Below are positions 2,317 through 38,588 of a stretch of 64,000 nt of DNA, one piece after another. The position numbers and the translations under genes are program-made. Each line of letters begins with the position of its first letter. Position 1 is the first letter of the stretch. The notes beneath the pieces were generated by a model. It saw only the letters and a program-made list of their open reading frames with translations, did no database searches and was not told the DNA's origin. Source of the DNA: Casimicrobiaceae bacterium (GTDB lineage: Bacteria > Pseudomonadota > Gammaproteobacteria > Burkholderiales > Casimicrobiaceae); contig JBGAHH010000006.1 in assembly GCA_044226265.1 (NCBI GenBank), positions 6,556-70,555 of the forward strand, read 5' to 3'.

Positions 2317-2410
2317 CGCTTCTGGAGTCTCGTGACCGGCGCATTCTAGCCCCGCCGTCGCGCGCGCGGCGGCCGGAGCGGCCCCGCGGGGCGCGTACTA
2401 TCATCCCGCC

Positions 2411-6866: not shown

Positions 6867-6974
6867 CTTGGTCTCCTGCGGTCTGCCCTGCACGGGATGA
6901 GACTCCCGCGCCCCCGGGAGGGTTCCGGGAAGGGGCCCGCGGGGTTCAGTCGCCATGGCGGTCGGCAGCTTACA

Positions 6975-8051
6975 TCACAGCCGCAGCGGCGCCCCGTAGC
7001 CGGTCAGCTCGAGGTAGCCGCGCCCGAGCGGCCGTCCCGACGCGCTCGCGCGAACCGCGCCTTCCCAGTAGACGGTGCCGACGCTCGCGCGCGCGTCGAG
7101 CTCCTGGTCGTCCATCAGCGGCTCGACGGCGAACGCGAGGTCGCCCGCGCGCACGTCGAACGCGACCGCGTACTCGATGCCGGTGCGCGGCGAGCGCCAG
7201 GCGCGGCGCGGGACGAACGCGATCTCGCCCGGATCGAAGCGTCGCACGCGTCCCGAGGCGTCGCGCAGCGTGCCGCCCGCCCAGAACGCGCCGCCGTCCT
7301 GCGCGCGGATCCGGAACGCCATGAGCGCGCCGCCGTCGTCGAGGTTCATGCCGATCCAGTCCCAGCCGGCGGCCTCCGGCGCGAGGTAGGCGCTCGACCA
7401 TTCGTGGTCGAGCCACGCGGTCCCCGTCACCGCGCGCGCCGTGCCGCCGAGCGTGATCGTTCCGGCGACGGCGAGCTGCGGCACGCTGTAGTAGCCGCTC
7501 GCCTGCCCCGGGCGCGGCCCCTTGCGCGAGACGCCGCGCTCGCCTTGCAGCAGCGGCGTCTGCGTCGCCCGGAAGGCGAGGTCGAGCGCGAACTCGCGCG
7601 CGGGGACGATCGCGCGCCAGGCTTCTCCGCCGCCGACGAGCGACCAGCGGTCGAGGCGCACGTCGGTGGTTCCCTCCGACGCGCGAGCGAGGCCGAAACC
7701 CGCGCGCGCCGCGCGCTGGTCGTGCACGAGGCGGCCGACGTCCGCTTCCGCGATCGCCGCGTGCGCGAACAGGAGCTCCCGCGGCGCGAACGCGCTCGCC
7801 GAGGCCTCGGCCACGCCAGGCCGGCTGCGGAAGAACGTCACCTGCACGCCGCGCTCGACGCCGCGGTCGTCGGCGGTCCAGCCGGTGACGTACCACCATT
7901 CGGTGCGAAACGCCGGATGGCTGCCGTGGTCGCGCGGAAACGCGATCGCGAGGTCGGGGCCGACGTCCGGCCACGCGACCTCGCCCACGGCCGCACGCGG
8001 CAGCGTCGCGAGCGCGAGCGCCTGCAGCAGGCGGCGCCGCGACGGGCTCAC
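6975..8051 (-). CDS. AttH-like lipocalin / carotenoid 1,2-hydratase-like exported protein
   Basis: GTG start at 8051 overlaps the permease stop by 4 nt (GTGA). FPRDHGSHPAFRTEWWYVTGW...GYYSVPQL...TAWLDHEWSS motif series typical of the AttH/CrtC-like family found next to FtsX-type ABC permeases. Confidence 0.7.
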   Translation of the reverse strand: MSPSRRRLLQALALATLPRAAVGEVAWPDVGPDLAIAFPRDHGSHPAFRTEWWYVTGWTADDRGVERGVQVTFFRSRPGVAEASASAFAPRELLFAHAAIAEADVGRLVHDQRAARAGFGLARASEGTTDVRLDRWSLVGGGEAWRAIVPAREFALDLAFRATQTPLLQGERGVSRKGPRPGQASGYYSVPQLAVAGTITLGGTARAVTGTAWLDHEWSSAYLAPEAAGWDWIGMNLDDGGALMAFRIRAQDGGAFWAGGTLRDASGRVRRFDPGEIAFVPRRAWRSPRTGIEYAVAFDVRAGDLAFAVEPLMDDQELDARASVGTVYWEGAVRASASGRPLGRGYLELTGYGAPLRL

Positions 8052-10551
8052 CAGTCGTCCTTCACCGCCAGCGCGGGCTCGCCGCCGGTCGCGCGCCGCG
8101 CGCTCGCCAGCGCGGTGATCGCCGCTGCCGCGAGCAACGCGGCCGAGAACGCCGCGAGCTGGCCCCACGGCGGGTGCAGGTCCATGCTCCAGCCGAATGA
8201 CTGGCGGTTCACTACGTGCACGAGGACCAGGCTGATCGCGCCGCCGAGCGCGAGCCCGATGACGAGTCCGACCGCGCTGACGACCAGGCCCTCGACGCCG
8301 AGCATCGCGCCGACCGCGCGGCGCGTCATGCCGAGGTGGCGGAGCACGCCGAATTCGCGGCGGCGCGCGAGCGCGAGCGCGCCGAACGACGCCGACAGCC
8401 CGACCAGCCCGATCACGATGGCGACCGCCTCGAGCACGTAGGTGACGGCGAAGGTCCGGTCGAAGACGGCGAGCGAGATCTCGCGCATCTCGCCGGGCGT
8501 CGCGATCGCGAGGCGCCCTTCGCCGAACCGGGCATCGATCGCGTCGCGCACGCGCTCGGCGCGCGCGCCGGGCGCGAGCCACAGCGCCGCATCGCCGACG
8601 CGATCCTCGCCGACGAGCCTTCGGTACACCTCGCGCTCGACGACCACGGTGCCGGTCTGCCGCGCGTAGTCGCGCCACACGCCCGCCACCGCGAACGCCG
8701 CGTTGCGCCCGCCGATCGGCAGCTCGATCCGGTCGCCCGGCGCGACCCGGTAGCGATCGGCGAACGCCTCGCTCACCCACGCGGGCGGCAGCGCGTGGTC
8801 GAGCGTCGCCGCGGGCTCGCCGACGATCGGCAGCCGCTCGGCGGCGGTCGACGCATCGAGGTCGCGGGCGATCAGCGTGACCGGCGCCTCGTCGTCGCGC
8901 ACCAGGATGCGCGTCGCGCGCAGGAACTCGGCGCGGCGCACGCCGGGAATCGCCTCGAGCGCGCGCTGGTCGTCGGCCGAGAGCCAGCCCGTGCCTCCCG
9001 CGCTTCCGGCGCGCACGTAGAGATCCGCGGGCAGCATGCGGTCGAGCCACGCCGAGAGCGAATCGCGGAACGACGCGACCATGATCGCCATCGACACCGC
9101 GAGCGCGACGGCGGCGACGATCGCCGCGAGGCTCACCGTCGCCTGTCCCGGCGCCGCGCGAAGGCTGTCGAGTGCGAGCGAGGCCGCTGGCGGCCGCGGC
9201 GTCGGGACGAGCGAGAGCAGCGCGCGCGCGAGGCGGGGCAGGAGCAGGAGCGTGCCGACGAGCATCAGCGCGATCGCGGCGTAGCCGAACAGCGGCAGGC
9301 CCGCGACCGGCGGGAGCGCGACCACCAGCGCGGAGGCGGCGAGGCAGGCGAGCCCCGGCCGGGGCGGAGCGAGCCGCGCGAACGCGGACGCGTCGTCGCC
9401 CGCGCGGATGGCCGCGGCGGGCGACGCGCTCGCGGCCTCGACGGCGGGGAGCCACGCGCCGGCGGCGGCCGCGGCGATCCCGAGCGCGGCGAACGCCAGC
9501 GCGTCGGCGGCCGAGAACGCGAGCGAGGGGGCCTCGCCGCGAAAGAAGCCCGCGCCCAGGTCGGCGCCCACCACGCGGAGGAGCAGGGCCGCCAGCGCGT
9601 AGCCTGCGGCGATCCCGATCGCGGCCCCGGCCGTGCCGACCAGCGCGCCTTCGCCGAGCAGCAGCGCGACGAGCGTCCGCCTCGGCAGGCCGAGCGTGCG
9701 CAGGAGCGCGAGCTGCGTGCGGCGGCGGACGACCGAAAGCGCCTGCGTCGAGAACACGAGCAGGCTGCCGGTGAACAACGCGACGAGCGACAGCACGTCG
9801 AGGTTCACGCGATACGCGCGCGTCATGCGCGCCGCGAGCCCCGCGGTCTCGGCCGGCCGCTCGACGGCGACGCCCGCGGGCAGCAGCGCCGCGATCGCCG
9901 CGCGGGCATCGTCGACGCTCGCGCCCGGCGCGACGCGCAGGTCGATGCGCGACAGGCGACCGAGGCGGCCGAACGCATCCTGCGCTGCCGCGATGTCGAC
10001 GACGCCCAGCCGCAGTCCGCTTGCCGCCGCGACGGCGCCCGCCACGACGAAGGGCATGGTGGCGGTGCCGACCTGCACGTCGAGCTTCGCGCCGCGCGCG
10101 ACGCCGAGCGACGCGATCGCCGCGCGCGACAGGAAGATCCGGTCGGCGCGCAGGAGGTCGAGCGCGTCGCCGCCCTGGCCCACGAGCGCGGGCGTCACCG
10201 CCGCCGCGCGGAACGCGTCGACGCCGACGACGCGCAGCGACTCGTCGCGCGACGGCAGGTGCGCGTCGACTTCGACGACCGGCGAGGCGACGGCGATCGA
10301 CGGCAGGCGCGCGATCGACGCGTAGACCGACTCGTCGAACCCGTCGACGGGGCCGCGCACGACGAGGTCGGCCGCGCCCGAGAGCGTCGCGACGCCCGAC
10401 GTGAACTCGGCGACCGCCGTGCGATTCACGGCCTGGATCGCGAACCCGAGCGCCACGCCGAGCGCGATCGCCAGCGTCGCGATCGCGGTGCGGCCGCGGT
10501 TCGCGCCGAAAGCGCCGCGCATCACCGCGCGGGCGACGTCGCGCGTCGGCG

Positions 10552-10555: not shown

Positions 10556-11229
<674 letters not shown>

Positions 11230-11304
11230 GCGGCGGTCATCGCGGCGAAGGGCGCCGGCGAGCGCATTGTGGCAGACGCGACCGGGAGCGTAGACTCGGC
11301 GCGC

Positions 11305-11790
11305 ATGAACGCCTTCGTCCGCCGCGCGGTGCAGGGGTTCGCGTTCGGGCTCGGCTTCTCGCTCGCCGCGGCGCTCGCGTGGTGGGGATGGCAGCAATTC
11401 GTCGGGCTCGCGGGCGAAGTGAAGGACACCGCGGCGGGTGGTGCACGCGCGCGCTCGGGCAGCGCGACGCAGGCCGCCGCGCGGGAGGCGATCGCGAACG
11501 CGCCGGCGACCTCGGTGCGCGTCGCGGATTTCCGGCTCGAGCGCCGCAACGGCGACGTCGTCGCGCTGGGCACGCTGCACAACGATTCGGAGACGATCGC
11601 CAGGACGGTGCGGCTGGAGGCGGCGTACTACGACCAGGCCGGCCGGCTCGTCGACCTGTGCGGCTGGTACGTGGCGCCGGCGCTGGCGCCCGGCGAGGAC
11701 AAGCCGTTCAAGATTTCCTGCGGGGGCACGCCTGATCGTCCGGCCCCCGAAAGCGCGTCGGTCCGGTTCCGGCTCGTCGAGGCGTACTAG
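11305..11790 (+). CDS. Membrane-anchored FxLYD-like domain protein (hypothetical)
   Basis: ATG at 11305, one N-terminal TM segment. C-terminal beta-rich domain with [30 protein letters not shown] resembling the FxLYD pattern. The upstream part of the 385-aa track ORF is antisense to the ATPase gene. Confidence 0.5.
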
Positions 11791-11850
11791 AGCGCCATGG
11801 GTGCGCGCGGGCGTCCGAAGGCGCCCGCTTCGCAGGCGGGGACCCGTGCG

Positions 11851-12144
11851 TCAGGCCGAAGGCTTGCCCATCATGTTCTTGATGACGCCGACGACGATCA
11901 TCACGACGATCCCGCCGATGCCGCCGCCCGCCACGTTCGAGAGGATCGGGCCCATGCCGCCGGCCGCCGCGGCGCCGCCTCCGCCCATCAGCATGCCCAG
12001 GAGCTGGCCGCCGATGCCGCCGCCGACAATGCCGGCGATGGAGTTGCCGACCGTGCCCAGGCTGTAGTTCTTGGCGATCGCGCCGCCGAGGTTGCCGCCG
12101 ACCGCGCCGCTGATCAGTTGCACAAGCAAGGATCCCATGTCCAT
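11851..12144 (-). CDS. Small glycine-zipper membrane protein (hypothetical)
   Basis: 97 aa with GxxxG-rich repeats ([25 protein letters not shown]). GGAGGAGG Shine-Dalgarno lies upstream of the ATG. Confidence 0.55.
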
Positions 12145-12267
12145 CGTCGCGCCTCCTCCCCGGGTCGTCGGGCGGTCCGCCGCCGGGATGGCGGATGCGA
12201 CTTGCGGACGCCGACGCCGCGACCGACTATGCGCCGCGCCCTCCGCGCGCGCAATCCCGGCGAATCG

Positions 12268-13617
12268 TCAGGCGATGAGCGCGCGCACGAGGCCGACGCC
12301 CGCGGCCGCGAGCACGAGCGGAATCACGCCGAGGTCGGTCACGAACAGCGCGACGACGCTGGCGACGAAGATCGCGACCGACGCGACGTCCAGGCCCTGC
12401 ATCGGCGCCGCGATCGCGAGGCCGCCGGGCCAGAACACGTGCAGCGCGAAGAACATCGCGAGGCTCGCGATGACGCCGACGACCGCCGCGGTGATGCCGG
12501 TGAGCGGCGTCGTGATCCGCGTGTCGCCGTGCGTCGCCTCGACGAGCGGGCCGCCGGCGAGGATGAACAGGAACGAAGGCAGGAACGTGAAGAACGTCGC
12601 GACCACCGCGCCCGCGACGCCCGCGGCCTCGACCGCGCCCGGCCCGAGCGCCGCGTGCGTCCACGCGCCGACGAAGCCGACGAACGCGACGACCATGATG
12701 AGCGGTCCGGGCGTCGTCTCGCCGAGCGCGAGCCCGTCGATCATCTGCGCCGCGGTGAGCCATCCGTTCACGTCGACCGCCTGCTGCACGAGGTAGGGGA
12801 GCACCGCGTAGGCGCCGCCGAAGGTCACGAGCGCGGCCTTGGTGAACAGCCACGCCATCGCCGGCAGCGTGCCGTCGCCGCGCGCGACGATCCGGACGAG
12901 CGCGAACGCGGCGGCCCAGATCGCGACGAATGCCGCGACCGTCACGGCGAAGCGGCCGCGCGACCAGCGCGCGTGCGGCGGCGTCGGCGTGTCGTCGTCG
13001 ATCACCGCCGGCGCGTGTCCCCCGCCTTTCGCCGCATGACCGCCGCGACCCGCGAACGCCGCCGGGACGAGGCGCGCGCCGACGACGCCCGCGAGCGCGG
13101 CGCAAACGACGATCGCCGGGAACGGCACGCCGAAGCCCTGCAGCGCGACGAACGCCGCGAGCGCGACGGCCCACAGCAGCGGGTGGCCGAGCGTGCGCCG
13201 GCCGATCCGCCAGGCGGCGTGCAGGACGATCGCGACGACCGCCGGTTTCACCGCCCACAGCGCGCCCGCGATCGCCGCGACCTGGCCGTAGCGCAGGTAG
13301 ATCCACGACAGCGCGACCAGCACGACGATCGACGGCAGCACGAACAGCGTGCCGGCGACGATGCCGCCCCAGGTGCGGTGCAGCAGCCAGCCGAGGTACA
13401 CGGCGAGCTGCGTCGCCTCGGGCCCCGGCAGCAGCATGCAGTAGTTGAGCGCGTGAAGGAACCGGCGCTCGGAGATCCAGCGTCGGCGATCGACCAGCTC
13501 GCGATGCATGATCGCGATCTGCCCGGCCGGCCCGCCGAAGCTCACGAACCCGAGCTTCAGCCAGAACCGGAACGCCTCGCCGCGCGAGGGCGGCGCCGGC
13601 GCGCGAGCGTCGTTCAG
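12268..13617 (-). CDS. chrA: Chromate-ion-transporter (CHR) family oxyanion transporter; start codon uncertain
   Basis: Two CHR halves (WLKLGFVSFGGPAGQIAIMHRELV... and LFTKAALVTFGGAYAVLPYL...). There is no ATG/GTG/TTG between the moeA stop and the conserved N-terminal helix. The candidate start is CTG at 13617, overlapping the moeA TGA (CTGA) and preceded by GAGGG. The alternative GTG at 13545 would truncate the first conserved helix. Confidence 0.8.
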   Translation of the reverse strand: MNDARAPAPPSRGEAFRFWLKLGFVSFGGPAGQIAIMHRELVDRRRWISERRFLHALNYCMLLPGPEATQLAVYLGWLLHRTWGGIVAGTLFVLPSIVVLVALSWIYLRYGQVAAIAGALWAVKPAVVAIVLHAAWRIGRRTLGHPLLWAVALAAFVALQGFGVPFPAIVVCAALAGVVGARLVPAAFAGRGGHAAKGGGHAPAVIDDDTPTPPHARWSRGRFAVTVAAFVAIWAAAFALVRIVARGDGTLPAMAWLFTKAALVTFGGAYAVLPYLVQQAVDVNGWLTAAQMIDGLALGETTPGPLIMVVAFVGFVGAWTHAALGPGAVEAAGVAGAVVATFFTFLPSFLFILAGGPLVEATHGDTRITTPLTGITAAVVGVIASLAMFFALHVFWPGGLAIAAPMQGLDVASVAIFVASVVALFVTDLGVIPLVLAAAGVGLVRALIA

Positions 13618-14891
13618 ATCAAGCCCTCGAGGAGCTGCACGTCGACCTCGGCTCCCGCGTCGAGGTTGCCGGTGAGGTCCGACAGCACGATGAAGCAGTT
13701 CGCCTGCGACATCGACGACAGGATGCCCGAGCCCTGGTCCCCGGTCGGCCGCACGCTCCACCCGCCGTCGGCCGCGCGAGAGAGGATGCCCCGCTGGAAC
13801 TCGGTGCGGCCCGGCGCCTTCTTCAGCGGCGCGGCGAGCTTCGCCTTGAACGCCGGCACGGGCTCGGCGGCGGAGCGCCCCTGCAGCACGAAGAGCGCGT
13901 CGCGCACGAACTGGTAGAACGTGACCATGACGCTGACGGGATTGCCGGGCAATCCGAAGAAGTGCGCGCCGCCGATGCGCCCGTAGGCGAGCGGGCGGCC
14001 CGGCTTCATCGCGATCTTCCAGAACACGACCTCGCCCAGCCGGTCGAGCAGCTGCTTCACGTAGTCGGCCTCGCCCACCGAGACGCCGCCGGACGTGATC
14101 ACGACATCGGCGCTCGCCGCCGCGGAGCGGAACGCGCGCTCGAGCGCCTCCGGCACGTCGGGCACGACGCCGAGGTCGATCGTGTCGCATCCGACGCGCG
14201 AGAGCATCGCGCCGATCGTGTAGCGGTTGCTGTCGTAGACCTGGCCGGTCGCGAGCGGCGTGCCGATCGACACGAGCTCGTCGCCGGTCGAGAAGAACGC
14301 GACGACGAGGCGGCGGAACACCGGGACCTCGTTGATCCCGAGCGACGCGAGCATCCCGATCTCGGCCGGCCGCAGCGCCTGCCCCCGGCGGAACACGACG
14401 GCGCCCGCCTTCAGATCCTCGCCCGCGAAGCGGCGGTTCTGGCCGCGCTTCGCGACCGCGCCCGCCGCGACGACGACGCGATCGCCGCGGTCCTCGGCGC
14501 GCTCCTGCATGACGACGGTGTCCGCGCCGGCCGGCATCACGCCGCCGGTGAAGATGCGGACGGCCTCGCCGCGGCCGACCGCTCCTTCGTGCGGGCGGCC
14601 TGCGAACGACTCGCCCACGCGCTTCAGCGTCGTCTCCGCGCCCGGGGCCAGGTCGTCGAAGCGCACCGCCCAGCCGTCCATCGCCGAGTTGTCGTGCCCC
14701 GGCACGTCGATCGGCGACGCGAGGTCCTCGGCGAGCGTGCGCCCGAGCGCCTGGCGGATGTGCACGCGCTCGACCGTCGTCACCGGCTCGAGGTAGTCGC
14801 GGATCAGCGTCCGCGCGCGGTCGACCGGCATCGAGTTCGGATCGAAGTCGTCGGCGCAGGAGGCTTCGCGGAGGGAGAGGGGAGCGTTCAT
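13614..14891 (-). CDS. moeA: Molybdopterin molybdenumtransferase MoeA
   Basis: Start at MNAPLSL (14891). SPIDVPGHDNSAMDGWAV, TGGVMPAGADTVV, ITSGGVSVGEADY, PGNPVS motifs. Confidence 0.9.
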   Translation of the reverse strand: MNAPLSLREASCADDFDPNSMPVDRARTLIRDYLEPVTTVERVHIRQALGRTLAEDLASPIDVPGHDNSAMDGWAVRFDDLAPGAETTLKRVGESFAGRPHEGAVGRGEAVRIFTGGVMPAGADTVVMQERAEDRGDRVVVAAGAVAKRGQNRRFAGEDLKAGAVVFRRGQALRPAEIGMLASLGINEVPVFRRLVVAFFSTGDELVSIGTPLATGQVYDSNRYTIGAMLSRVGCDTIDLGVVPDVPEALERAFRSAAASADVVITSGGVSVGEADYVKQLLDRLGEVVFWKIAMKPGRPLAYGRIGGAHFFGLPGNPVSVMVTFYQFVRDALFVLQGRSAAEPVPAFKAKLAAPLKKAPGRTEFQRGILSRAADGGWSVRPTGDQGSGILSSMSQANCFIVLSDLTGNLDAGAEVDVQLLEGLI

Positions 14892-29313: not shown

Positions 29314-29401
29314 TGGCGGAGAGAGAGGGATTCGAACCCCCGATACGTTGCCGTATACCTGATTTCGAGTCAGGCGCCTTCGACCACTCGGCCATCTCTC
29401 C
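29314..29401 (-). tRNA. tRNA-Ser (anticodon CGA), CCA encoded
   Basis: The reverse complement folds as a class II tRNA. Acceptor GGAGAGA/TCTCTCC, anticodon arm CCTGA-CUCGAAA-TCAGG, long variable arm, T-arm GGGGGTTCGAATCCC. Confidence 0.95.
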
Positions 29402-29508: not shown

Positions 29509-31320
29509 ATGGACCTGCCGGCGCCGGCAAGCGCGACGCCCGGCGCGCCTTCCCCCGGCAGCATGAACACGGCCGATCCCGTCGTGCTGAAACGCGTCGC
29601 CCGGCTCGGTCTCGTCGTCGCGATCGCCTCGGGCGCCGCCATGGCTATGTTCGACGTCGCGGCGCCGCTCGAGCGGCGCCTGTCGGATGCGGGATTCGCG
29701 CTGCTGCGCGGCCTGGCCGTTCCGGACGATCGGATCGTCGTCGTCGGCATCGACGAGGCGACGGTCGGCTCGCTTCCCGAGCCCATGACGCTGTGGCACC
29801 GCCACCTCGGCGAGTTGTTGGCGGCTGCGGCGCAGGCGCGCGCGCGGATCGTCGGCCTCGACGTCGTGCTTCCCGACCGCGGTTACGCGACGATCGCTCC
29901 CGACCTCGACGCGGCGCTGGTGGACGGGATCCTGCGCATGCGACAGGTCGGCGACGTGGTGCTGGCGCTGACCGTCGACGAAGGCGGACGTCCGCGCCCG
30001 GTCCATCCGGTCTTCCTGGTCGCCGCGGGGCAGGAGGGAGCCGGTTTCGCGCTGTGGCGAGCCGACCCTGACGGTGTCGTGCGCACGTTCGACGAGCGGC
30101 TGGGTGACGGGGGGGAACCGGTTCCCACTTTCGTCGGGCAGATCGCGCGCATGCTCGGCGTCACGCCGGTCGCCGGACGCATCAACTACGCGCTGGGCGA
30201 CGGTTTCGCCGTGATTCCGCTGGGCACGGTGCTCCGGTGGGCGCGCGACGGCGACGAGCGCATGCTGGCGGACGCGCTGGGGTCACGGATCCTGCTCGTC
30301 GGGTCGGTCCTTCCCTTCGCGGATCGCACGCGTGCCCCCGTGCGTCTCGGCCAAGGTGGCGCGGCCGGGGAGGCCGAACCCGGCGTGCTCGTCCACGCGC
30401 AGGCGCTGCGCACGATCCTCGCGGGCCGCACGGTCGTGTCGTTGCCGGAAGGGCTCGCGGTGCTCCTCTCCGGACTCGCCGGACTCGCGTGGCTCGGCGG
30501 CCGGCGGCCGGCGACGGCCGTCGCGACCGTCGCCGCTGGTGGTGCGGCCGCGCTGGGCGCCGGCCTCTGGGCGCTGTCTCGGGACCTGCTCCTGCCCGTC
30601 GCGCCGGTGATCGTGACGGTCGCGCTGGCGGCGGGAGCGAGGCTCGCGTCCGAGGCGGCGGTCGCGTGGCGCGAGCGGCTGCGGCTGCGAGGCGTGTTCT
30701 CGGGCTACGTGAGCCCGCAGGTGATGGCCGAGATCGAGGCCGGCCGCCTCGAAGGGCTCGCGTGCGCGCGCCGGTTCCTCTGCGTGCTGGTGATGGACGT
30801 CCGCGGCTTCACGACGCGCGCCGAGCGGGAGCCGCCGGACCGCGTGCTGGCGCTCTTGAACGAGCTCGCCGAGCAGGCGACCGCCGCGATCCACGGCCGC
30901 GGCGGGACCGTCGACAAGTTCATGGGCGACGGCGTCCTCGCGTTCTTCGGCGCACCCTCTCCGATGGACGACCCGTGCGGCCCGGCGTTCGAGGCGGCAG
31001 TCGACGTGCTTGAGCGCGTCCGGCGGATCGGCGACACTTTCCCCGCCGCCGCGGGCGCGCCGCTCGCCGTGGGCATCGGGCTCGCGTGCGGCGAGGCGAC
31101 CGTGGGGCACGTCGGGGCGGCGTCGCGTCATTCGTACACGGCGATCGGCGATTGCGTGAACGTCGCTTCGCGCCTCGAGTCGTTGACCAAGGAGGTCGGT
31201 GTGCCGCTGGTGATGACGAAGGACGTGGCGATGCGCATCGGCGAGCGGCCCGGTCTGGTTCCGCTCGGCGTCCGGGCGATCAAGGGTCACACGTCGCTGG
31301 AGGTCGTCGGGTGGCGCTGA
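29509..31320 (+). CDS. CHASE2 sensor domain-containing class III adenylate/guanylate cyclase
   Basis: N-terminal TM. Periplasmic CHASE2-like region (RIVVVGIDEATVGSLPEPMTLWHRHLGELL...IVGLDVVLPDR). Three TM helices. Cyclase core (FLCVLVMDVRGFT, KFMGDGVLAFFGAP, GIGLACGEATVGHVG, YTAIGDCVNVASRLE). Alternative start ATG 29563. Confidence 0.85.
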   Translation: MDLPAPASATPGAPSPGSMNTADPVVLKRVARLGLVVAIASGAAMAMFDVAAPLERRLSDAGFALLRGLAVPDDRIVVVGIDEATVGSLPEPMTLWHRHLGELLAAAAQARARIVGLDVVLPDRGYATIAPDLDAALVDGILRMRQVGDVVLALTVDEGGRPRPVHPVFLVAAGQEGAGFALWRADPDGVVRTFDERLGDGGEPVPTFVGQIARMLGVTPVAGRINYALGDGFAVIPLGTVLRWARDGDERMLADALGSRILLVGSVLPFADRTRAPVRLGQGGAAGEAEPGVLVHAQALRTILAGRTVVSLPEGLAVLLSGLAGLAWLGGRRPATAVATVAAGGAAALGAGLWALSRDLLLPVAPVIVTVALAAGARLASEAAVAWRERLRLRGVFSGYVSPQVMAEIEAGRLEGLACARRFLCVLVMDVRGFTTRAEREPPDRVLALLNELAEQATAAIHGRGGTVDKFMGDGVLAFFGAPSPMDDPCGPAFEAAVDVLERVRRIGDTFPAAAGAPLAVGIGLACGEATVGHVGAASRHSYTAIGDCVNVASRLESLTKEVGVPLVMTKDVAMRIGERPGLVPLGVRAIKGHTSLEVVGWR

Positions 31321-32165
31321 AGTGGACCGAACGCATCGGCAGGCGCGCGTGGGCCGCGTCGGCGGCGCTCCTGCTCGCCGGTGCGAGCGCGCTCGCGCAA
31401 CCTGTCGCCGTCGTGACCGACGTGCAGGGAGTGGCGGCGCTCGCGGGTGCGCCGGGAGCGACCGTGGCGATGCTGCAGCAGCTCCACGCCGGCCAGGAGC
31501 TTGGCCTGGCGGCGGGCACCCGGCTCGCGCTGGCTTACTACGCGAACGGCGCCCAGTACGAACTGCGCGGGCCGGGGAACGTGTCGATCGATGCGCAGCA
31601 GCCGCATGCGGCGCAGGGCGCGACGGTTCACGCGCGCCCGGCGGCCGGACCGGCGCCCGTGCGGCTCAAGCCGGCCGGCCTCGTGCAGGGCGCGGTCGTG
31701 ATGCGCAACCTGGGGCTGCGCGTGGTCGCGCCGGACCCGCAGGTGCTGTCGACGCGTCCTGAGCTCGCGTGGACGGACTCGCGCACCGGCACCGTTTACG
31801 ACGTCGCGGTGTTCGACGCGTCCGGGGCGCGCGTGTTCGAGACGACGACGCGAGAACGTCGGTCGCAGGTGCCGGAATCGCGCTCGCTCGCCCCGGGGCA
31901 ACCGTATGCGCTGCAGGTTTCCGCGCGGATCGGACAGGACGTCGTGCAGGTGGCGCGCGCGGAGTTCCGCGTCGCGCCGGCCGAGCTCCAGGCTCAGGCG
32001 AAGGCCCTCGCCCCGGCGGCGGATGCCGCGGTGGCCGACCGGGTGGCCTATGCGCTGTGGCTCGAGCAGAACGACCTGCGCGACGAGGCGCGGCGCTGGT
32101 GGGCGGCGATCGCGCACGCGCGCCCGGACCAAGCGGCGCTGCGGCAGCGTGCGGACGTGCGCTGA
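31311..32165 (+). CDS. Exported protein with FecR-like and DUF928-like segments and a helical C-terminus (hypothetical)
   Basis: GTG at 31311 overlaps the cyclase 3' end by 10 nt. Signal peptide ending ALAQP. VTDVQGVAALAG...LHAGQELGLAAGTRLALAYYANGAQYELRGPGNVSI resembles FecR-type beta domains. PELAWTDS..YDVAVFDASG...LAPGQPYALQVSA resembles the DUF928 pattern. Domain calls are from memory only. Confidence 0.55.
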   Translation: MALKWTERIGRRAWAASAALLLAGASALAQPVAVVTDVQGVAALAGAPGATVAMLQQLHAGQELGLAAGTRLALAYYANGAQYELRGPGNVSIDAQQPHAAQGATVHARPAAGPAPVRLKPAGLVQGAVVMRNLGLRVVAPDPQVLSTRPELAWTDSRTGTVYDVAVFDASGARVFETTTRERRSQVPESRSLAPGQPYALQVSARIGQDVVQVARAEFRVAPAELQAQAKALAPAADAAVADRVAYALWLEQNDLRDEARRWWAAIAHARPDQAALRQRADVR

Positions 32166-32198
32166 TCGCGGCGTGTCGCGTTCGGACCGGCAATCCCG

Positions 32199-33932
32199 AT
32201 GAGTCGGCGCGGTCCCACGCGTCGCGAGTTCCTGCGGTTCGGCGCGGCAGCGGCGCTGCTGCCGGGGCTCGCGCCGCATCCTGCGCGAGCGGCCGCGGAT
32301 CCTTCACGGCTCGCGCTGGTCGTCGGCAATGACGCCTATCCGGACGCGCCGCTCGGCAACGCGGTGAACGACGCGAAGGCGATGGCGAAGCTCCTCGGCG
32401 AGGCCGGATTCGGCGTCGACCTGCGCACCAACGTCGACCGGGTCGCGTTCGCCGCGGCGACGACGCGCTTCGCCGAAACTGCGCAGCAAGGCGACGTCAG
32501 GCTCGTGTTCTTCTACTACGCGGGCCATGGCGCGCAGCTCGACTGGCGCAACTACCTGCTGCCGGTCGACGCGCGGGTGAATACGTCGGCCGATCTGCCT
32601 GCGCAGTGCATCGACCTCGCTTCCGTGCTGAGCGCGCTTTCGCGGGCCAAGGGGAAGACGTTCGTGATCGTTCTCGACGCGTGTCGGGACAATCCATTCG
32701 GCGGGTCGTACCGGCCCCCGGAGCGGGGGCTGTCGCAATTCGACGCTCCGCCCGGGAGCCTGCTCGCCTTCTCGACCGCGCCCGGCCGGGTTGCGGCGGA
32801 CGCGTCGGGTCCCACCGGCCAGTCCGGTCTCTACACGGAGAACCTCGTGCGCGAGCTGTCGGCCCGCGCGACGCGGCTCGAGGATGCACTGAAGCGCGTG
32901 CGCCTCGCGGTGCGCATCGCGTCGAAGGGGGCGCAGGTGCCTTGGGAGTCGACCTCGCTCGAGGGCGACGTGTTCCTGTTCCCCGCGGCGAGGAAGCTCA
33001 GCGAGGCGGAGCTCGAGGCGGAAGTCCAGCGCGACCTGGATGCGTGGAACCGGACCAAGGGATCGAAGGACACGAAGGACTGGATCGCATACCTTCGCGA
33101 GTACCCGAGCGGGCGCTTCGCCGAGATCGCGCAGTCGCGTCTCGCGTACTTCGCGGCGCGAGACGAGGCGGCGCGGGCGCCGGTGCAGGTCGCGACGGCG
33201 CCGACGCCAGCACCCGTCCCCATGTCCCCCATCCCGGTCCCGGCTGCGCCGGCGACCGTCGCCCCACCGGCGGTCGTCCTGGCGGAATGGAAGCGCCGGG
33301 AGCCGGTCCAGCTCGAGATCGCCCCAGGTCGCCCGCCTCCCGTGCTGATACGCCCGACCGCGAACCCGATGTCCGCCGGGAGCTACCCGCTCGATCGCAT
33401 TTACTCGGTGGGCGACGTCGCCGTCTTCGCGACGACCGATCCGGTCTATGGCCGTGCGCCCGGCCGCGAGGAGCACCGGGTGACGCGCGTCGATCTCGAT
33501 GAGGACACGATCGAGATCAACGAGGGGCAGATCGTGATCGACAGCATGGGCAATCCGATCAAGTGGGGGACGTTCACGTACGATCCGCGGCTCCAGATCA
33601 ACCCTGCCGAGCTCCAGATCGGGCGACGGTGGACGGTTGTCTTCCAGCGTCGGGCAGGCACCGGTCCGCCGATGGACGCGTACTACGACTACCACGTGGC
33701 GGCTCGCGAGCGCGTCGGGCTCGCGGCAGGCGAGTTCGAGGCGTTCCGGATCGACGGCGAGGGATTCAACCGCTTGGGCGCGCGCCTGGCATTCGTCGCC
33801 TGGGTCGCGCCCGGTCTCAATTTTTCGCTTCGCACCGACCTGCGGCGCTATGACGGCAGAAGTATGCGCGTGCTGGATGCGGAGGTCCGCGAGCTCGTGT
33901 CCTGCCGACAGCGGCGCTGGACGCAGGCGTGA
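32199..33932 (+). CDS. Caspase-family (peptidase C14) protein with Tat signal and uncharacterised C-terminal domain, paralog 1
   Basis: TRREFLRFGAAAALLP twin-arginine signal. C14 dyad contexts FFYYAGHGAQ (His) and FVIVLDACRDNPF (Cys). Pro/Ala linker, then about 195 aa of unassigned beta-rich sequence. Confidence 0.85.
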   Translation: MSRRGPTRREFLRFGAAAALLPGLAPHPARAAADPSRLALVVGNDAYPDAPLGNAVNDAKAMAKLLGEAGFGVDLRTNVDRVAFAAATTRFAETAQQGDVRLVFFYYAGHGAQLDWRNYLLPVDARVNTSADLPAQCIDLASVLSALSRAKGKTFVIVLDACRDNPFGGSYRPPERGLSQFDAPPGSLLAFSTAPGRVAADASGPTGQSGLYTENLVRELSARATRLEDALKRVRLAVRIASKGAQVPWESTSLEGDVFLFPAARKLSEAELEAEVQRDLDAWNRTKGSKDTKDWIAYLREYPSGRFAEIAQSRLAYFAARDEAARAPVQVATAPTPAPVPMSPIPVPAAPATVAPPAVVLAEWKRREPVQLEIAPGRPPPVLIRPTANPMSAGSYPLDRIYSVGDVAVFATTDPVYGRAPGREEHRVTRVDLDEDTIEINEGQIVIDSMGNPIKWGTFTYDPRLQINPAELQIGRRWTVVFQRRAGTGPPMDAYYDYHVAARERVGLAAGEFEAFRIDGEGFNRLGARLAFVAWVAPGLNFSLRTDLRRYDGRSMRVLDAEVRELVSCRQRRWTQA

Positions 33933-34066
33933 GGGCGCATCGCGTGCCGGAACCCCGAATCCGGTGCCCGTGGCGGAGCTCCGTTTGCGGGTCGCATGCA
34001 GGCAATCCGGATGGACGCAGGCGCGACGGAGTCGACCCGATGGCCATGATGAACGTCTGCCGTCTC

Positions 34067-34123
34067 ATGCGTCGCGATTTCCTGCGGTTCAGCGTGGCCG
34101 CCGAGCTGGCCCCGGACCCGTGA
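34067..34123 (+). pseudogene. Orphan Tat-signal-coding relic upstream of caspase paralog 2
   Basis: ATGCGTCGCGATTTCCTGCGGTTCAGCG nearly repeats ACGCGTCGCGAGTTCCTGCGGTTCGGCG of paralog 1 (32217 onward). It is out of frame with paralog 2 and ends at a TGA overlapping its GTG start. Confidence 0.4.
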
Positions 34124-35844
34124 ACGGCTCTCGTCCCACGCGACGCGAGTTCCTGCAACTTGGCGCGGCGGTCGTGCTGGCACCAGGGGTCGCGCTGCCG
34201 GCCGGTGCGGCAGCGGATCCTTCGAGGGTCGCGCTGGTCGTCGGCAACGACGCCTATCCGGACGCGCCGCTCGGCAACGCGGTGAACGACGCAAAGGCCA
34301 TGGGGGCCCTGCTCGAGCAGGCAGGGTTCGGCGTCGATCTGCGCACGAACGTCGACCGCGCGACGATGCTCGACGCGACGAAACGTTTCGCCGAGGCGGC
34401 GCGTGGCGGCGACGCGAAGCTGGTGTTCTTTTACTACGCCGGGCACGGGGCGCAGCTCGACTGGCGCAACTACCTGCTGCCGGTCGACGCGAAGGTCAAC
34501 ACCGCCGCGGACCTGGCGGCGCAGTGCCTCGATCTCGCGTCGATGCTGAGCGAGTTGCCACGCGCGAAGGGGAAGACCTTCGTGATCGTGCTCGACGCGT
34601 GCCGCGACAATCCGTTCGGCAGCGCCTACCGGCCGCCGCAGAAGGGGCTGTCGCAGTTCGACGCCCCGCCCGGGAGTCTGATCGCGTTCTCGACGGCGCC
34701 GGGGAGCGTGGCGGCGGATCTCGCCGTCGGCGGGGGAAGGTCGGGGTTGTACGCGGAGCACCTGGTGCGGGAGCTCGGCGTGCCGGCGACGCGCCTGGAG
34801 GATGCGCTGAAGCGCGTGCGCCTGGCGGTCCGCATTGCGTCGAACGGGACGCAGGTGCCGTGGGAGTCGACGTCGCTCGAAAGCGACGTGTTTCTTTTTC
34901 CGCAGGCCCGAAGACTGTCCGAAGCGGAGCTGGAGGCGCAGATCCGCCGTGAGCTGGAGGCGTGGGACCGGGTGAAGGGATCGAAGGAGACGGCGGACTG
35001 GGCCGCGTTCGCGCGCGAGTATCCGAGCGGACGATTCTCGGAGATCGCGCAGGCGCGGCTCGCGTACTTCGCGGCTCGCGACGAGGCGGCGCGCGCGCCG
35101 GTGCTGGTGGCCGCCGCGCCGGTGCCGACGCCGCCTGCCGCATCGCCGGCGTCCCCGGCTCAGGACGCGACGCAGGCCGCGTCCACCGCCACACAGGCGG
35201 ACACGCGCCCGCGCGAGGCGCAGCTCGTCGTGGCGCCGGGTCGCGACTTCCCGCTGCTGATGCGCCCGACCGGGAACCCGAACTCAGCGGGGACCTACGG
35301 GATCGGCCGCGAGTACTCGGTCGGGGACGAGGTGGTTTACCTGCAGTCGGACCCGGTCTACGGTGGCGCGACGAAGACGCTGACCTGGCGCATCACGAAG
35401 GTCGACTTCGACGCCGATCGCATCGAGCTCAACGACGGCTTCATCGTGCTCGACAGCATGGGCAACCCGCTCGTGTGGGACGGCGCTACCTACGGTCCGC
35501 GCTTCCAGGCCGTGCCCACGGAGGTCCAGCTCGGCAGGCGGTGGACGACGAATTTCGTCTTCTCGCGCGGGGCCGAGAGCAGCGACTCTTACTACGACTA
35601 CGTCGTCGCGGCGCGCGAGCGCGTCAAGCTTCCGTTCGGCGAGGTCGAGGCGTTCCGCATCGACGGCGAGGGCTTCAACCGGCGCTACGGCACGCGGTTG
35701 TCGATCCGGCATTGGCTCGTGCCCGGCGTCAACTTCTCGCTGCGCACGGACAACAGGCGCTACGACGGACGGAGCATGCGAGTGCAATACGCGGAACTTC
35801 GCGAGATGGTCTCCTGCCGCCAGATGAAGTGGAGGCAGGCGTGA
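34120..35844 (+). CDS. Caspase-family (peptidase C14) protein with Tat signal and uncharacterised C-terminal domain, paralog 2
   Basis: GTG start (VNGSRPTRREFLQLGAAVVLAP). Same dyad contexts as paralog 1 and the same C-terminal module, ending VSCRQMKWRQA. Confidence 0.85.
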   Translation: MNGSRPTRREFLQLGAAVVLAPGVALPAGAAADPSRVALVVGNDAYPDAPLGNAVNDAKAMGALLEQAGFGVDLRTNVDRATMLDATKRFAEAARGGDAKLVFFYYAGHGAQLDWRNYLLPVDAKVNTAADLAAQCLDLASMLSELPRAKGKTFVIVLDACRDNPFGSAYRPPQKGLSQFDAPPGSLIAFSTAPGSVAADLAVGGGRSGLYAEHLVRELGVPATRLEDALKRVRLAVRIASNGTQVPWESTSLESDVFLFPQARRLSEAELEAQIRRELEAWDRVKGSKETADWAAFAREYPSGRFSEIAQARLAYFAARDEAARAPVLVAAAPVPTPPAASPASPAQDATQAASTATQADTRPREAQLVVAPGRDFPLLMRPTGNPNSAGTYGIGREYSVGDEVVYLQSDPVYGGATKTLTWRITKVDFDADRIELNDGFIVLDSMGNPLVWDGATYGPRFQAVPTEVQLGRRWTTNFVFSRGAESSDSYYDYVVAARERVKLPFGEVEAFRIDGEGFNRRYGTRLSIRHWLVPGVNFSLRTDNRRYDGRSMRVQYAELREMVSCRQMKWRQA

Positions 35845-35861
35845 TCACCGTGCCGGCCGGA

Positions 35862-36211
35862 CCGAGTTCAACGACGGAAGGATCGTGCTGAACAGCGTGG
35901 GCAACACGCTGAAGGAGGTCGAGGCCGGCTTCGAACCGCGGATTCAGGGCAACCCCGCCGAGCTCCAGCCCGGCAAGCGATGGCGTATGCGGTGCCGCCG
36001 GTGGAGAGGCGGCGAGTGGGGGGAGTCCTGCTCCGACCTGCACGTGGCCGCGCGAATGGGTCCAGGCGGCTGCCGGGGCGTTCGAAGCCTTCCGCATCGA
36101 CGGCGAGGGCTTCAAGCTCAATGCCGGCACACGTCTCGTCTGCGTCGCGTGGCTGGTGCCGGGACCCACCTCGCGCTTCGAACCAGCCGGATGCACGGGT
36201 CGCAGGCGTGA
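35862..36211 (+). pseudogene. Decayed third copy of the caspase-paralog C-terminal module
   Basis: EFNDGRIVLNSVGN...FEPRIQGNPAELQPGKRW...DLHVAAR aligns by eye with paralogs 1 and 2. After a frameshift near 36055-36062 the next frame reads AFEAFRIDGEGFKLNAGTRLVCVAWLVPG. An internal deletion precedes a shared ...CAGGCGTGA end. The signal peptide and protease domain are absent. Confidence 0.65.
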
Positions 36212-36419: not shown

Positions 36420-38588
36420 CTAGATCGGCGAGCAGAACGCGACGCCGTTCGTGCCGTCCGGCACCCAGCCCCGGTTGATCATCGCGCGCCGCACCGAGAG
36501 GTCCGGCGTGTGCCGGTGGTTCGCGTCCTGCCGGTTGTTGAAGAACCGGTAGATCGGGATCGTGCCCTCGCGGCACGCGCCGGTGGCGTCGGGCACCTCG
36601 ATGTAGAACACCGCGGGGTTCTCGAGGATCCAGATGCCGGGCCAGCGTGCCTGGACGAACTGGCATTCCGCCGCGTTCGCGGTGAAGAAGTGGGAGCGGA
36701 TCAGCCCGCCCGCGTAGAAGCGGCACACCGGTTGCGCCGTCGGCGGCGCGAGGAACGGAACCGGGTACGCGAAGAACACGATGCCGGTGCGCTGCCACTG
36801 CGTGAGGTAGGTGTCGAGGGCCGCGATCTCGTTCGGGTCCGCGGTGATGAAATAGTGGTCGGCGGCCGCGTCGTAGTATTCGATGACCGGCACCGCGTTG
36901 GGCGGGATGACGCCGGTCGCGGGCGGCGTGCTCGCGACGGCCGCGCCCGCGTCGAGCAGGCCCGAGCCGCAGACGCCGCCCGCGCGGCATTGCGCGCCGA
37001 TCGGGAAGTCGCGCGTCGTGCCGGTGAGGATCGACAGCACGCGGCCGGGCGTGAGCAGCGGATTGCGCGCGATCATCAGCGACGCGGTGCCCGAGACGAG
37101 CGGCGCCGAGAAGCTCGTGCCCGCCGCGATCGCGTACGCCGGATCGCCGGGCGTGGTGTCGCCGAGCGCGTAGGTCGACAGCACGAGCGAGCCCACGTCG
37201 CCGCCGTCGCCGCCGGGTGCCGAGAGGTCGACGCGCGCGCCGTAGTTCGAGTAGCCGGTGCGATCGCCGTTGTTGCCGGTGGCGGCGACGGTGACGACGC
37301 CGCCGCAGTTCGCCGGCGACCAGTTCGCCGCGTCGTCGGACGCGTTGCCCGCCGCGGCGACGACCACCGCGCCCTGCGCGAGCGCGTCGTCGATCGCTTC
37401 CTGGACCGCGGACGAGCACGCGCCGTAGCCGGCGAGGCTCATGTTGATCACGCGCGCGGGATTGGGATTCGGCGGCACGCCGTCGATCTGCACGCCGGAC
37501 GCCCACAGCATGCCCTCGAACACGTCCGCGTCGGTGCCGCCGCACTTCGCGAGCACGCGCACCGGCAGGATCTTCGCGTTCCAGTCCATGCCGGCCATGC
37601 CGACGCCGTTGTTCGTGTTCGCCGCGATGAGGCCCGTGACGAACAGCCCGTGGAAGAAGCTGTCCTGCGCGGGCGCACCGTCGTAGCACTCGTTCGCGCC
37701 CTCCCAGTCGCCCTCGTCGCGCGGGTTCGGGTCGCGACCGTCGCCGTCGCGCGCACGCGCGGGATCGGAGACGAAGTCGTAGCCCGCGAGCACGCGGCCG
37801 TCGAGGTCGGGGTGGGGCAGGATGCCGGTGTCGATGACCGCGACCGCGATCGACGCCGAGCCCTTCTGCACGTCCCACGCGGCCGGCGCGTTGACGCCGG
37901 CGACCGGATCGGTCAGCGCCCACTGGTTGGCGAACAGCGGGTCGTTCGGGATCACCTGCGGGAGCACCCGGCGCACCGGGTCCGCGTACGCCACCGTCGC
38001 GTCCTGCTGCAGCGTCGCGGCGAGCGCGGCGAGCGCGTCGGGCGGACGCGCGACCGCGATCGACAGCATCCAGACGTTGCCGACCTTGCGTTCCGCGGCG
38101 ACCGGCGTCCCGAGCAGCGCGGCGTATCGCGGCGCGAGCGTCGACCAGTCTTCGGGGACGCCGTCGGCGAGGCGCACCATCAATCGATTGCCCGCCGCGC
38201 GGAAGCGCGGATCCGCAGCCGACGCCGCCTTCGCGACCGCCTGCGGCGGACGGATCGGCTGCGCCCACAGCACCGAGCGGTCCTCGCGCAGGACCTTCGC
38301 GATCCGCGCCGCGCCCGCATCGTCGACCGGTCCCGCGACGGAGAGCTCGAGCGCGCCGGTGCGCGTCGTGCCCGTGAGCGTGAACGAAGCGCCCGCGACG
38401 CGCTCGAGCTTCGCGAGCATCGCGTCGGTGAGCGTGCCGCGCGGCGCCGCCGACGGATGCAGCATCACGCGCACGCCGGCGGACGCGTCGGCGAAGGCAG
38501 GCGCAGCGAGGGCGGCAGCCCCCAGCGTCGCGAGCGCCAGGATCGCGTCAAGGATGCGTGGCGTCGGGCGGGCTCTCGTGGTGGCCAT
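36420..38588 (-). CDS. Exported S8-family (subtilisin-like) serine peptidase with C-terminal repeat domain
   Basis: Signal peptide ending PAFADA, propeptide-like region. Triad contexts VAVIDTGI (Asp), FHGLFVTG (His), GTSFSAPLVSG (Ser). The C-terminus has three HYF/HFF-type repeats (DHYFITADPNE, SHFFTANAAE, NHRHTPD) reminiscent of DUF5648. Confidence 0.9.
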   Translation of the reverse strand: MATTRARPTPRILDAILALATLGAAALAAPAFADASAGVRVMLHPSAAPRGTLTDAMLAKLERVAGASFTLTGTTRTGALELSVAGPVDDAGAARIAKVLREDRSVLWAQPIRPPQAVAKAASAADPRFRAAGNRLMVRLADGVPEDWSTLAPRYAALLGTPVAAERKVGNVWMLSIAVARPPDALAALAATLQQDATVAYADPVRRVLPQVIPNDPLFANQWALTDPVAGVNAPAAWDVQKGSASIAVAVIDTGILPHPDLDGRVLAGYDFVSDPARARDGDGRDPNPRDEGDWEGANECYDGAPAQDSFFHGLFVTGLIAANTNNGVGMAGMDWNAKILPVRVLAKCGGTDADVFEGMLWASGVQIDGVPPNPNPARVINMSLAGYGACSSAVQEAIDDALAQGAVVVAAAGNASDDAANWSPANCGGVVTVAATGNNGDRTGYSNYGARVDLSAPGGDGGDVGSLVLSTYALGDTTPGDPAYAIAAGTSFSAPLVSGTASLMIARNPLLTPGRVLSILTGTTRDFPIGAQCRAGGVCGSGLLDAGAAVASTPPATGVIPPNAVPVIEYYDAAADHYFITADPNEIAALDTYLTQWQRTGIVFFAYPVPFLAPPTAQPVCRFYAGGLIRSHFFTANAAECQFVQARWPGIWILENPAVFYIEVPDATGACREGTIPIYRFFNNRQDANHRHTPDLSVRRAMINRGWVPDGTNGVAFCSPI

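Follow-up and report, generated by a model that had tools for sequence, protein, structure and literature searches.

The closest described relative of the locus reported here is the mtx cluster of magnetotactic bacteria, in which MtxA is encoded together with a CHASE2 adenylate cyclase and close to a Sel1/TPR protein (PMC4439547, PMC5088516). MtxA is a periplasmic monomer, and its gene precedes the conserved CHASE2 adenylate cyclase gene (PMC4439547). We analyzed a stretch of DNA of 64,000 nucleotides (nt; hereafter the window), with about 72% guanine plus cytosine (GC), from an uncultured member of the Burkholderiales, in which four intact genes on the + strand (G1 to G4; Table 1) encode a CHASE2 receptor cyclase, an exported MtxA-family protein and two caspase-like proteases of the C14 family. 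An earlier reading of this DNA (the original prediction) had proposed a single envelope module linking a CHASE2 cyclase with caspase-like proteolysis. Profile searches and recurrent co-localization support this core idea, and the four genes very probably constitute one functional, conserved extracytoplasmic module.

As in the mtx cluster, a full-length MtxA homolog (G2) with the same domain order and a signal peptide is encoded next to a CHASE2 cyclase. In contrast to that cluster, the gene order in the window is cyclase followed by the MtxA-like gene, and putatively exported caspase-fold proteases, which are unreported in PMC4439547 and PMC5088516, are linked to the pair. Moreover, MtxA has been held to occur in about five organisms and to be linked to magnetotaxis, whereas we find hundreds of representatives.

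In Sinorhizobium meliloti, CyaD1, CyaD2 and CyaK are likewise CHASE2 adenylate cyclases with exported neighbors, and the Crp-type regulator Clr adjoins CyaD1 (PMC5498481). The signal perceived by these cyclases is proteinaceous and acts via the outer-membrane protein NsrA (PMC5498481, PMC13001267). On pSymB (L110, CP140955.1, 3595-9813) the gene for an exported FecR-TPR protein of 1,197 amino acids (aa) overlaps the start of cyaK by 1 nt. The S. meliloti partners differ from G2 in being FecR or FecR-TPR proteins, and no caspase-fold protease is reported there. The possibility that the rhizobial FecR-TPR partner is a hidden CHAT or MtxA protein was rejected, as local profiles detect no MtxA-like, C14 or CHAT similarity. 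Immediately upstream of this FecR-TPR/cyaK pair, in divergent orientation, is a gene whose product has a PycTM (Pycsar effector) domain.

The "BiofilmReg" system of Burkholderia also encodes a CHASE2 sensor with a tightly linked exported accessory protein, but its output is a histidine kinase with a response regulator, its partner is a LysM-FecR protein (COG4254) and it includes no protease (PMC5192318). A caspase fold is coupled to CHASE2 in the cyanobacterial metacaspase-CHASE2 and EACC2-caspase-CHASE2 proteins (PMC3501461, PMC8195603). For these fusions a cytoplasmic caspase domain with an extracellular CHASE2 sensor is predicted, whereas the caspases of the window are separate proteins, predicted to be exported to the membrane side that CHASE2 faces, and the output is a cyclase. 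Cyanobacterial pseudo-orthocaspases have Tat-like leaders (PMC6426788). By analogy only, the locus resembles CpxP-CpxA-DegP (PMC4160245) and RseA/RseB-DegS, in which a periplasmic protease removes the accessory protein or inhibitor of a sensor upon an envelope cue. The families involved in these pathways are unrelated to ours, apart from a tentative RseB-like domain in the C14 proteins, and they act through a phosphorelay or the release of a sigma factor, not through a cyclic nucleotide.

The original prediction could not tell whether such a neighborhood had been described before. In the literature searched, of which the coverage was incomplete, the MtxA-CHASE2 pairing is noted only in magnetotactic bacteria, and neither MtxA-like proteins nor CHASE2 cyclases are tied to exported C14 or CHAT proteases. 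The pairing is therefore known and the protease link was not found. Relative to the known theme of a receptor cyclase with an exported partner, the protease arm and the much wider distribution are new. To our knowledge, CHASE2, catalogued since 2003, has no defined ligand or activation mechanism, and bacterial caspase homologs are abundant, with roles that are mostly unknown.

The receptor cyclase and its exported partner

For G1, Pfam and hydropathy agree with the proposal of a CHASE2 sensor flanked by transmembrane helices and joined to a class III cyclase core. CHASE2 (PF05226) matches residues 46-325 with 75.2 bits (cutoff 26.3; E = 7.9e-21) and Guanylate_cyc (PF00211) matches with 43.3 bits (cutoff 21.9; E = 3.9e-11). 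Hydrophobic segments are located at residues 30-54, 309-327, 338-356 and 355-385, the last three with overlapping peaks. The predicted topology consists of a first transmembrane helix, a periplasmic ectodomain of about 255 aa, three transmembrane helices and a cytoplasmic cyclase. The best relatives of G1 in the PDB are adenylate cyclases (up to 3.4e-26), and its product is most likely cyclic AMP (cAMP). From the class III motifs, D430, K470, D474, T543, N551 and R555 are presumably the catalytic residues, and we take the active site to be of the adenylate type (Lys/Thr). The start of G1 is ambiguous: an ATG at 29509 has a GAGG 7 nt upstream, and an internal ATG lies at 29563. The closest ortholog (L001) starts at the equivalent of the latter (MNTADP), and the 18 additional residues are unconserved.

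G2 carries a Sec-type leader, as judged from hydropathy and as originally proposed. The description of the protein as FecR/DUF928-like fared less well. No sequence match to G2 was found in Pfam, NCBIfam or the PDB, even at E <= 10, and FecR (PF04773) is rejected at the sequence level. FecR was also absent from the families listed for 117 members of the G2 family scanned at E <= 0.1, and an hhalign comparison with the first 300 aa of the CyaK partner, which bear its FecR domain, gave a probability of 0.9%. For DUF928 (PF06051), 23 of the 117 family members, G2 itself not among them, gave sub-threshold to weak matches (best 2.5e-6). These matches span the Ig and helical part of the proteins, which suggests that the family is distantly DUF928-like in its C-terminal half, a matter of relatedness and not of membership.

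The AlphaFold model of G2, built on 25 homologs, has a predicted local distance difference test (pLDDT) score of 84. In order, it comprises a signal helix, a nine-strand N-terminal beta domain (residues 31-109), a linker of low confidence, an Ig-like sandwich (137-221) and a four-helix TPR-like domain (224-281). The top PDB match of this model in Foldseek is 4Z29 (E = 1e-4; TM-score relative to the target 0.57-0.59), the C-terminal Ig and TPR module of MtxA (MGR_0208) from Magnetospirillum (PMC4439547). A profile of the 117 family members matches full-length MtxA over residues 20-275 (E = 8e-7), and the domain order of G2 agrees with that of MtxA. By profile and predicted fold, G2 is a member of the MtxA family.

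The size of this family is easily missed. Word-indexed homolog searches returned 37 and 47 matches, a severe underestimate, against 9,720 matches at E <= 1e-3 when 1.8 billion cluster representatives were searched exhaustively with a profile. At E <= 1e-30 there were 496, the best of which are mostly full-length proteins of about 285 aa, although this count also takes in giant repeat proteins. Most carriers are uncultured and non-magnetotactic, from metagenome-assembled genomes (MAGs) of Burkholderiales and from soil and freshwater metagenomes. A tblastn search of the PLSDB plasmids with one MtxA-like protein (P0062) gave no match.

Parts of the MtxA architecture also occur elsewhere. P0046, P0047, P0048 and others are proteins of 1,000-4,500 aa with 10-38 tandem repeats that match the MtxA-like Ig-like domain, and MtxA-like C-terminal domains have been reported in giant symbiosis proteins of Chlorochromatium epibionts (2026 preprint). 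Two anti-sigma factors (P0199 and P0200) combine a zf-HC2 domain and one transmembrane helix with a periplasmic domain of the MtxA-type Ig plus TPR-like kind (hhalign probability 98%).

Putatively exported caspase-like proteases and their relics

G3 and G4 match Peptidase_C14 in Pfam at E = 1.9e-36 and 1e-36, respectively (126-127 bits), and are 68% identical over their full length (BLASTP). Profile searches thus support the C14 assignment together with those of CHASE2 and cyclase. The YYAGHG and LDACRD contexts, in which a His/Cys dyad had been recognized, are present in both proteins, and all 35 intact C14 domains from linked loci retain the catalytic His and Cys (35/35). The C14 proteases appear to be active enzymes, as far as conserved residues indicate. 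Whether CHASE2 might itself be a degenerate caspase-like domain, able to pair with the proteases, was addressed by an hhalign comparison of the CHASE2 alignment with the C14 and CHAT alignments, which yielded no match and had no power, since the positive control (C14 against CHAT) failed too.

At the start of both proteins, a hydrophobic stretch comes after the motif TRREFL. Only G3 has a clear AxA-type site (ARA); G4 has AGA. In line with the twin-arginine leaders proposed originally, 18 of 19 linked orthologs have such a motif ahead of the C14 domain, down to the partners of G2 homologs with about 35% identity. The hidden Markov models (HMMs) for twin-arginine translocation (Tat) signals score below threshold for G3 and G4 (Pfam 16.6 against 22.7, TIGR 14.1 against 16.7).

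Behind the C14 domain, G3 consists of a short helical middle part, a Pro/Ala linker and an all-beta C-terminal domain of about 210 aa; G4 also ends in such a domain. A search with the C-terminal domain found 8 proteins only, and the domain appears to be rare. Its model (pLDDT 80.5, from an alignment of 9 sequences) is an all-beta open barrel, for which Foldseek lists the YmcC-like lipoprotein structures 4fvs, 3fzx and 2in5 (E = 8e-5 to 7e-4, TM-score 0.41-0.48) and weaker matches to RseB/MucB (E of about 1e-2 to 1e-1). Tentatively, the modeled barrel hints at a domain that senses a hydrophobic ligand or envelope stress.

A decayed further caspase copy downstream of G4, as described originally, is real, but only the last ~120 caspase codons remain, and these are frameshifted: tblastn with G3 and G4 recovers them as two pieces that do not share a frame (E = 3e-19). 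The gap between G3 and G4 holds a second, 5' relic, which is 70% identical to 32212-32277 at the start of G3 and reads ...LMRRDFLRFSVAAELAPDP* in the open reading frame 33929-34123. Given a 5' relic in the gap and a 3' relic after G4, the caspase array has been repeatedly duplicated and pruned.

Such duplication and decay could also be expected of an immune system, and we considered whether the locus is a defense or conflict module, with Pycsar-like cyclic-nucleotide signaling or caspase effectors leading to immunity or cell death. The PADLOC model for PycC matches the cyclase (5.6e-28), the PADLOC caspase model matches the C14 domains (~1e-16), and the PycTM-like gene beside the FecR-TPR/cyaK pair of S. 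meliloti pSymB points in the same direction. However, PycC and adenylate cyclases belong to one superfamily, and adenylate cyclases from the PDB score equally well. No Pycsar effector match was found among the G1-G4 and S8 proteins scanned, the cyclase has a periplasmic CHASE2 sensor, and the proteases are predicted to be exported, not cytoplasmic. In addition, the readers encoded in related loci are Crp-type regulators and cyclic-nucleotide-binding kinases, and the locus is stable in the chromosome and of ordinary composition. A role in defense is therefore very improbable. Membership of a Pycsar system as such was rejected: the PADLOC matches are generic to the superfamily, no effector is matched and the sensor is periplasmic.

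Recurrence of the neighborhood

Loci with an MtxA-like gene were collected through exact-protein look-ups, a scan of the GTDB species genomes (15 loci, nearly all from Burkholderiales or other proteobacterial MAGs, with one Aquabacterium isolate) and a metagenome scan (80 loci), which used a different MtxA-like subfamily and a narrower alignment. They were annotated with iterated local HMMs for CHASE2, cyclase, MtxA-like, C14 and CHAT. After removal of duplicates, 99 distinct loci remained, 75 of them informative for cyclase adjacency. A CHASE2 cyclase adjoins the MtxA-like gene in every locus with enough sequence (75/75). Among the loci with 5 kb or more on each side, 18 of 19 have a C14 or CHAT gene within the 10-kb flanks; with a minimum of 3 kb the figure is 21 of 23. 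The recurrent co-localization on which the original prediction depended is therefore found across diverged lineages.

The arrangement of the genes varies. The order cyclase-MtxA-C14-C14 is shared by the window, L001, L012 and L015. In L007 and L009 the order is CHAT-cyclase-MtxA, with overlapping genes, and in L004 and L005 a cyclase-MtxA pair has a CHAT gene on the other strand. L017 and L020 have C14 upstream and MtxA preceding the cyclase, and L019 reads C14-cyclase-kinase-Crp-MtxA-CHAT-CHAT. More distant cases are L029 (C14-cyclase-MtxA; 30% identity to G2) and L028, a distant gammaproteobacterium-like contig with cyclase-MtxA-TPR-CHAT (23% identity). Stops and starts of module genes overlap by 4-17 nt in the window and its relatives.

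Gene fusions are observed as well, and between them they connect all three parts of the module. In P0138, cyclase, a transmembrane segment and an MtxA-like part are fused, the former signal peptide being kept as a membrane span, so that the topology is preserved. P0057 is an MtxA-like-TPR-CHAT fusion, and L010 encodes a C14-CHAT fusion (10677-14885, 1,402 aa) that starts with a TRREFL leader and occupies the place of the second caspase gene. In the CHAT partners the signal peptides are of the Sec type. From the leaders on G2, C14 and CHAT proteins, all three components are predicted to face the periplasm.

The genes might be neighbors through shared ancestry alone, without a functional link, as the closest relatives (L001, L012 and L015) are merely syntenic with the window. 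Against this, the linkage survives shuffled order and strand, varied contexts, identities of 23-45% and swaps between C14 and CHAT, and gene fusions of three kinds strengthen the case; we give the absence of any link hardly any credence. Despite the kinship of the loci, the shuffled order, the exchange of C14 for CHAT and the fusions all speak for linkage being under selection.

Several loci also encode proteins that could read a cyclic nucleotide. In L069, the sole locus with flanks of at least 5 kb that lacks a protease, a cyclic-nucleotide-binding Ser/Thr kinase gene adjoins the cyclase (6758-8188), and in L056, also without a protease, the adjoining gene encodes a Crp-family regulator (2399-3193). 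At least 15 more loci, including some with proteases, have homologs of this kinase or this regulator beside the cyclase, and in L019 (7163-9259) and L021 (4006-6197) readers lie between the cyclase and the MtxA-like gene. Crp-type and kinase genes of this kind adjoin the cyclase in many loci and support a cyclic nucleotide as the output of the module. No Crp-type or kinase reader was found in the 64 kb of the window, and the reader would therefore be encoded elsewhere in the genome.

The presence of Crp-type regulators in many module loci bears on the strongest rival explanation, in which the proteases are downstream effectors under cAMP/Crp control that remodel envelope or surface proteins, with no feedback to the sensor. 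S. meliloti offers a precedent: smc02177 and smc02178, next to cyaD1, are activated by Clr/cAMP and are not required for perception (PMC5498481). The tandem duplication and decay of the caspase genes would also fit diversifying effectors. However, in the window the protease and sensor genes are tightly packed on one strand, in L007 and L009 the CHAT gene runs into the start of the cyclase gene, and the P0057 fusion implies a protease near the co-sensor and not a distant effector. We consider a pure output role unlikely.

The coordinates of the window agree with the layout first described, of four intact genes on one strand with a 10-nt overlap between G1 and G2 and gaps of 33 nt (G2-G3) and 187 nt (G3-G4). 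The block is bounded by a tRNA-Ser(cga) gene and an oppositely oriented subtilase gene. It had been called accessory-looking. It does lie beside suhB, but its composition is ordinary and related MAGs carry it at the same suhB-linked site. Since the composition is not foreign and this site is common to related MAGs, the caspase-cyclase block is a lineage-conserved locus and not a recent island. An Rfam scan of the window found two tRNAs only, and a scan for promoters and terminators was uninformative at its GC content.

The subtilase has a signal-like hydrophobic N-terminus, a Peptidase_S8 domain (1.6e-47, Pfam) and a C-terminal DUF5648 (1.4e-13). Its gene is syntenic in L001, L010, L011, L012, L014 and L015 and absent from the remaining module loci; it is possibly a lineage-specific associate, outside the conserved core.

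Two of the related loci have further features of their own. L010, from a related MAG, contains a second, frameshift-decayed cyclase-MtxA pair (2119-4625 and 5597-6079) near an integrase (rve_3) fragment. L025 (2528-14304) belongs to Aquabacterium humicola RJY3, the only carrier in culture that was found. There, a shortened MtxA-like gene precedes that of the CHASE2 cyclase, a trypsin-like protease (not a caspase) is encoded on the other strand, and genes for a LanM-like protein (DUF4135) and a C39-ABC exporter lie upstream.

Table 1. Genes, gene relics and boundaries of the four-gene block in the window.
Feature	Position	Strand	Basis and remarks
G1, CHASE2 class III cyclase	29509..31320	+	Pfam and hydropathy
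G2, exported MtxA-family protein, 284 aa	31311..32165	+	GTG start; AlphaFold/Foldseek and profile
G3, C14 caspase-like protease with putative Tat leader, 577 aa	32199..33932	+	Pfam
G4, C14 protease with putative Tat leader, 574 aa	34120..35844	+	GTG start; Pfam; G3 paralog
Caspase-gene 5' relic (Tat-leader coding)	34062..34127	+	Repeat family D5, in G3-G4 gap
Third C14 gene relic (C-terminal domain)	35840..36211	+	tblastn and repeat families D3, D4, D7, D14
Exported subtilase (S8 + DUF5648)	36420..38588	-	Pfam; convergent with caspase genes
tRNA-Ser(cga)	29314-29401	-	Upstream boundary of four-gene block

A possible protease-gated receptor

The best overall explanation of the locus, which we hold with about as much confidence as doubt, is a module that signals from the periplasm to cAMP, with the MtxA-like protein as co-sensor and the proteases acting upon it. 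Universal adjacency, translational coupling and the fusion with the cyclase are the reasons to propose the MtxA-like protein as an obligate co-sensor or brake, which would bind the CHASE2 ectodomain. An envelope cue may recruit or activate the periplasmic proteases; the RseB/YmcC-like C-terminal barrel or, in the CHAT versions, the TPR arrays would capture this cue. The proteases would then cut the MtxA-like protein in the exposed basic linker between its domains, around R132, and such a cut would part the N-terminal domain from the Ig-TPR module and alter cyclase activity. The resulting cyclic nucleotide could be read by Crp-type regulators or cyclic-nucleotide-binding Ser/Thr kinases.

R132 is nearly invariant (90% or more of the 117 members in the alignment) and sits in the basic inter-domain linker of G2, in a segment with pLDDT < 50. 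In MtxA, the stretch VRRSVKK aligns with this linker, and trypsin cuts the purified protein in the equivalent linker, leaving the stable Ig-TPR module that was crystallized (PMC4439547). Orthocaspases, the non-metazoan homologs of caspases, are described as typically cleaving after Arg or Lys (PMC6426788). The linker is proposed as a candidate cut site because R132 is conserved despite lying in a low-confidence segment, because trypsin cuts MtxA there, and because of this cleavage at basic residues. That the proteases regulate the cyclase by cutting their MtxA-like partner is a tentative proposal, to which we attach rather more doubt than confidence.

The same linker and the same fusions would apply equally to one-time, constitutive maturation, with the proteases serving as processing enzymes for the MtxA-like protein or the receptor, for example by removing the N-terminal domain, and an obligate, stoichiometric gene linkage is compatible with an assembly factor. 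On the other hand, the proteases bear large putative sensor or interaction domains (the RseB/YmcC-like barrel or long TPR arrays), and some lineages have no linked protease at all. Maturation is an improbable account of the proteases.

A regulatory cut in the MtxA-like co-sensor, the proposal preferred here, also has to be weighed against a number of observations. Deletion of mtxA in Magnetospirillum is without phenotype (PMC4439547). The exported neighbors of S. meliloti cyaD1 are targets of cAMP/Clr and dispensable for signal perception (PMC5498481); neighboring genes can therefore be outputs. The P1 specificity of the C14 enzymes G3 and G4 is assumed by analogy, the scores of their leaders in the Tat models are below threshold (E = 0.0076 and 0.045), and the RseB/YmcC-like fold assignment is weak, with a TM-score below 0.5. 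Because of the shared phylogeny of the sampled loci, there were fewer independent events than the counts suggest. Finally, linkage to a C14 or CHAT protease is not universal, since L069 and L056 have none and A. humicola has a trypsin-like protease instead.

The most specific form of the proposal is that CHASE2 receptors are protease-gated: exported, catalytically active caspase homologs would cut an MtxA-like co-receptor or release a peptide ligand in the periplasm, and this cut would be the physiological input that switches cAMP synthesis. We rate this as doubtful. If true, it would provide the first defined activation mechanism for CHASE2, and a bacterial, extracytoplasmic caspase cascade with a logic comparable to that of protease-activated receptors. 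The model predicts where, and in which protein, the cut would be made. The module joins CHASE2, the bacterial caspase homologs and MtxA, of which the structure is known and no function, in a consistent predicted extracytoplasmic topology, and it extends the MtxA family beyond the context of magnetotaxis. Receptor cyclases with exported partners, of the MtxA type here and of the FecR type in rhizobia and Burkholderia, may represent a general design.

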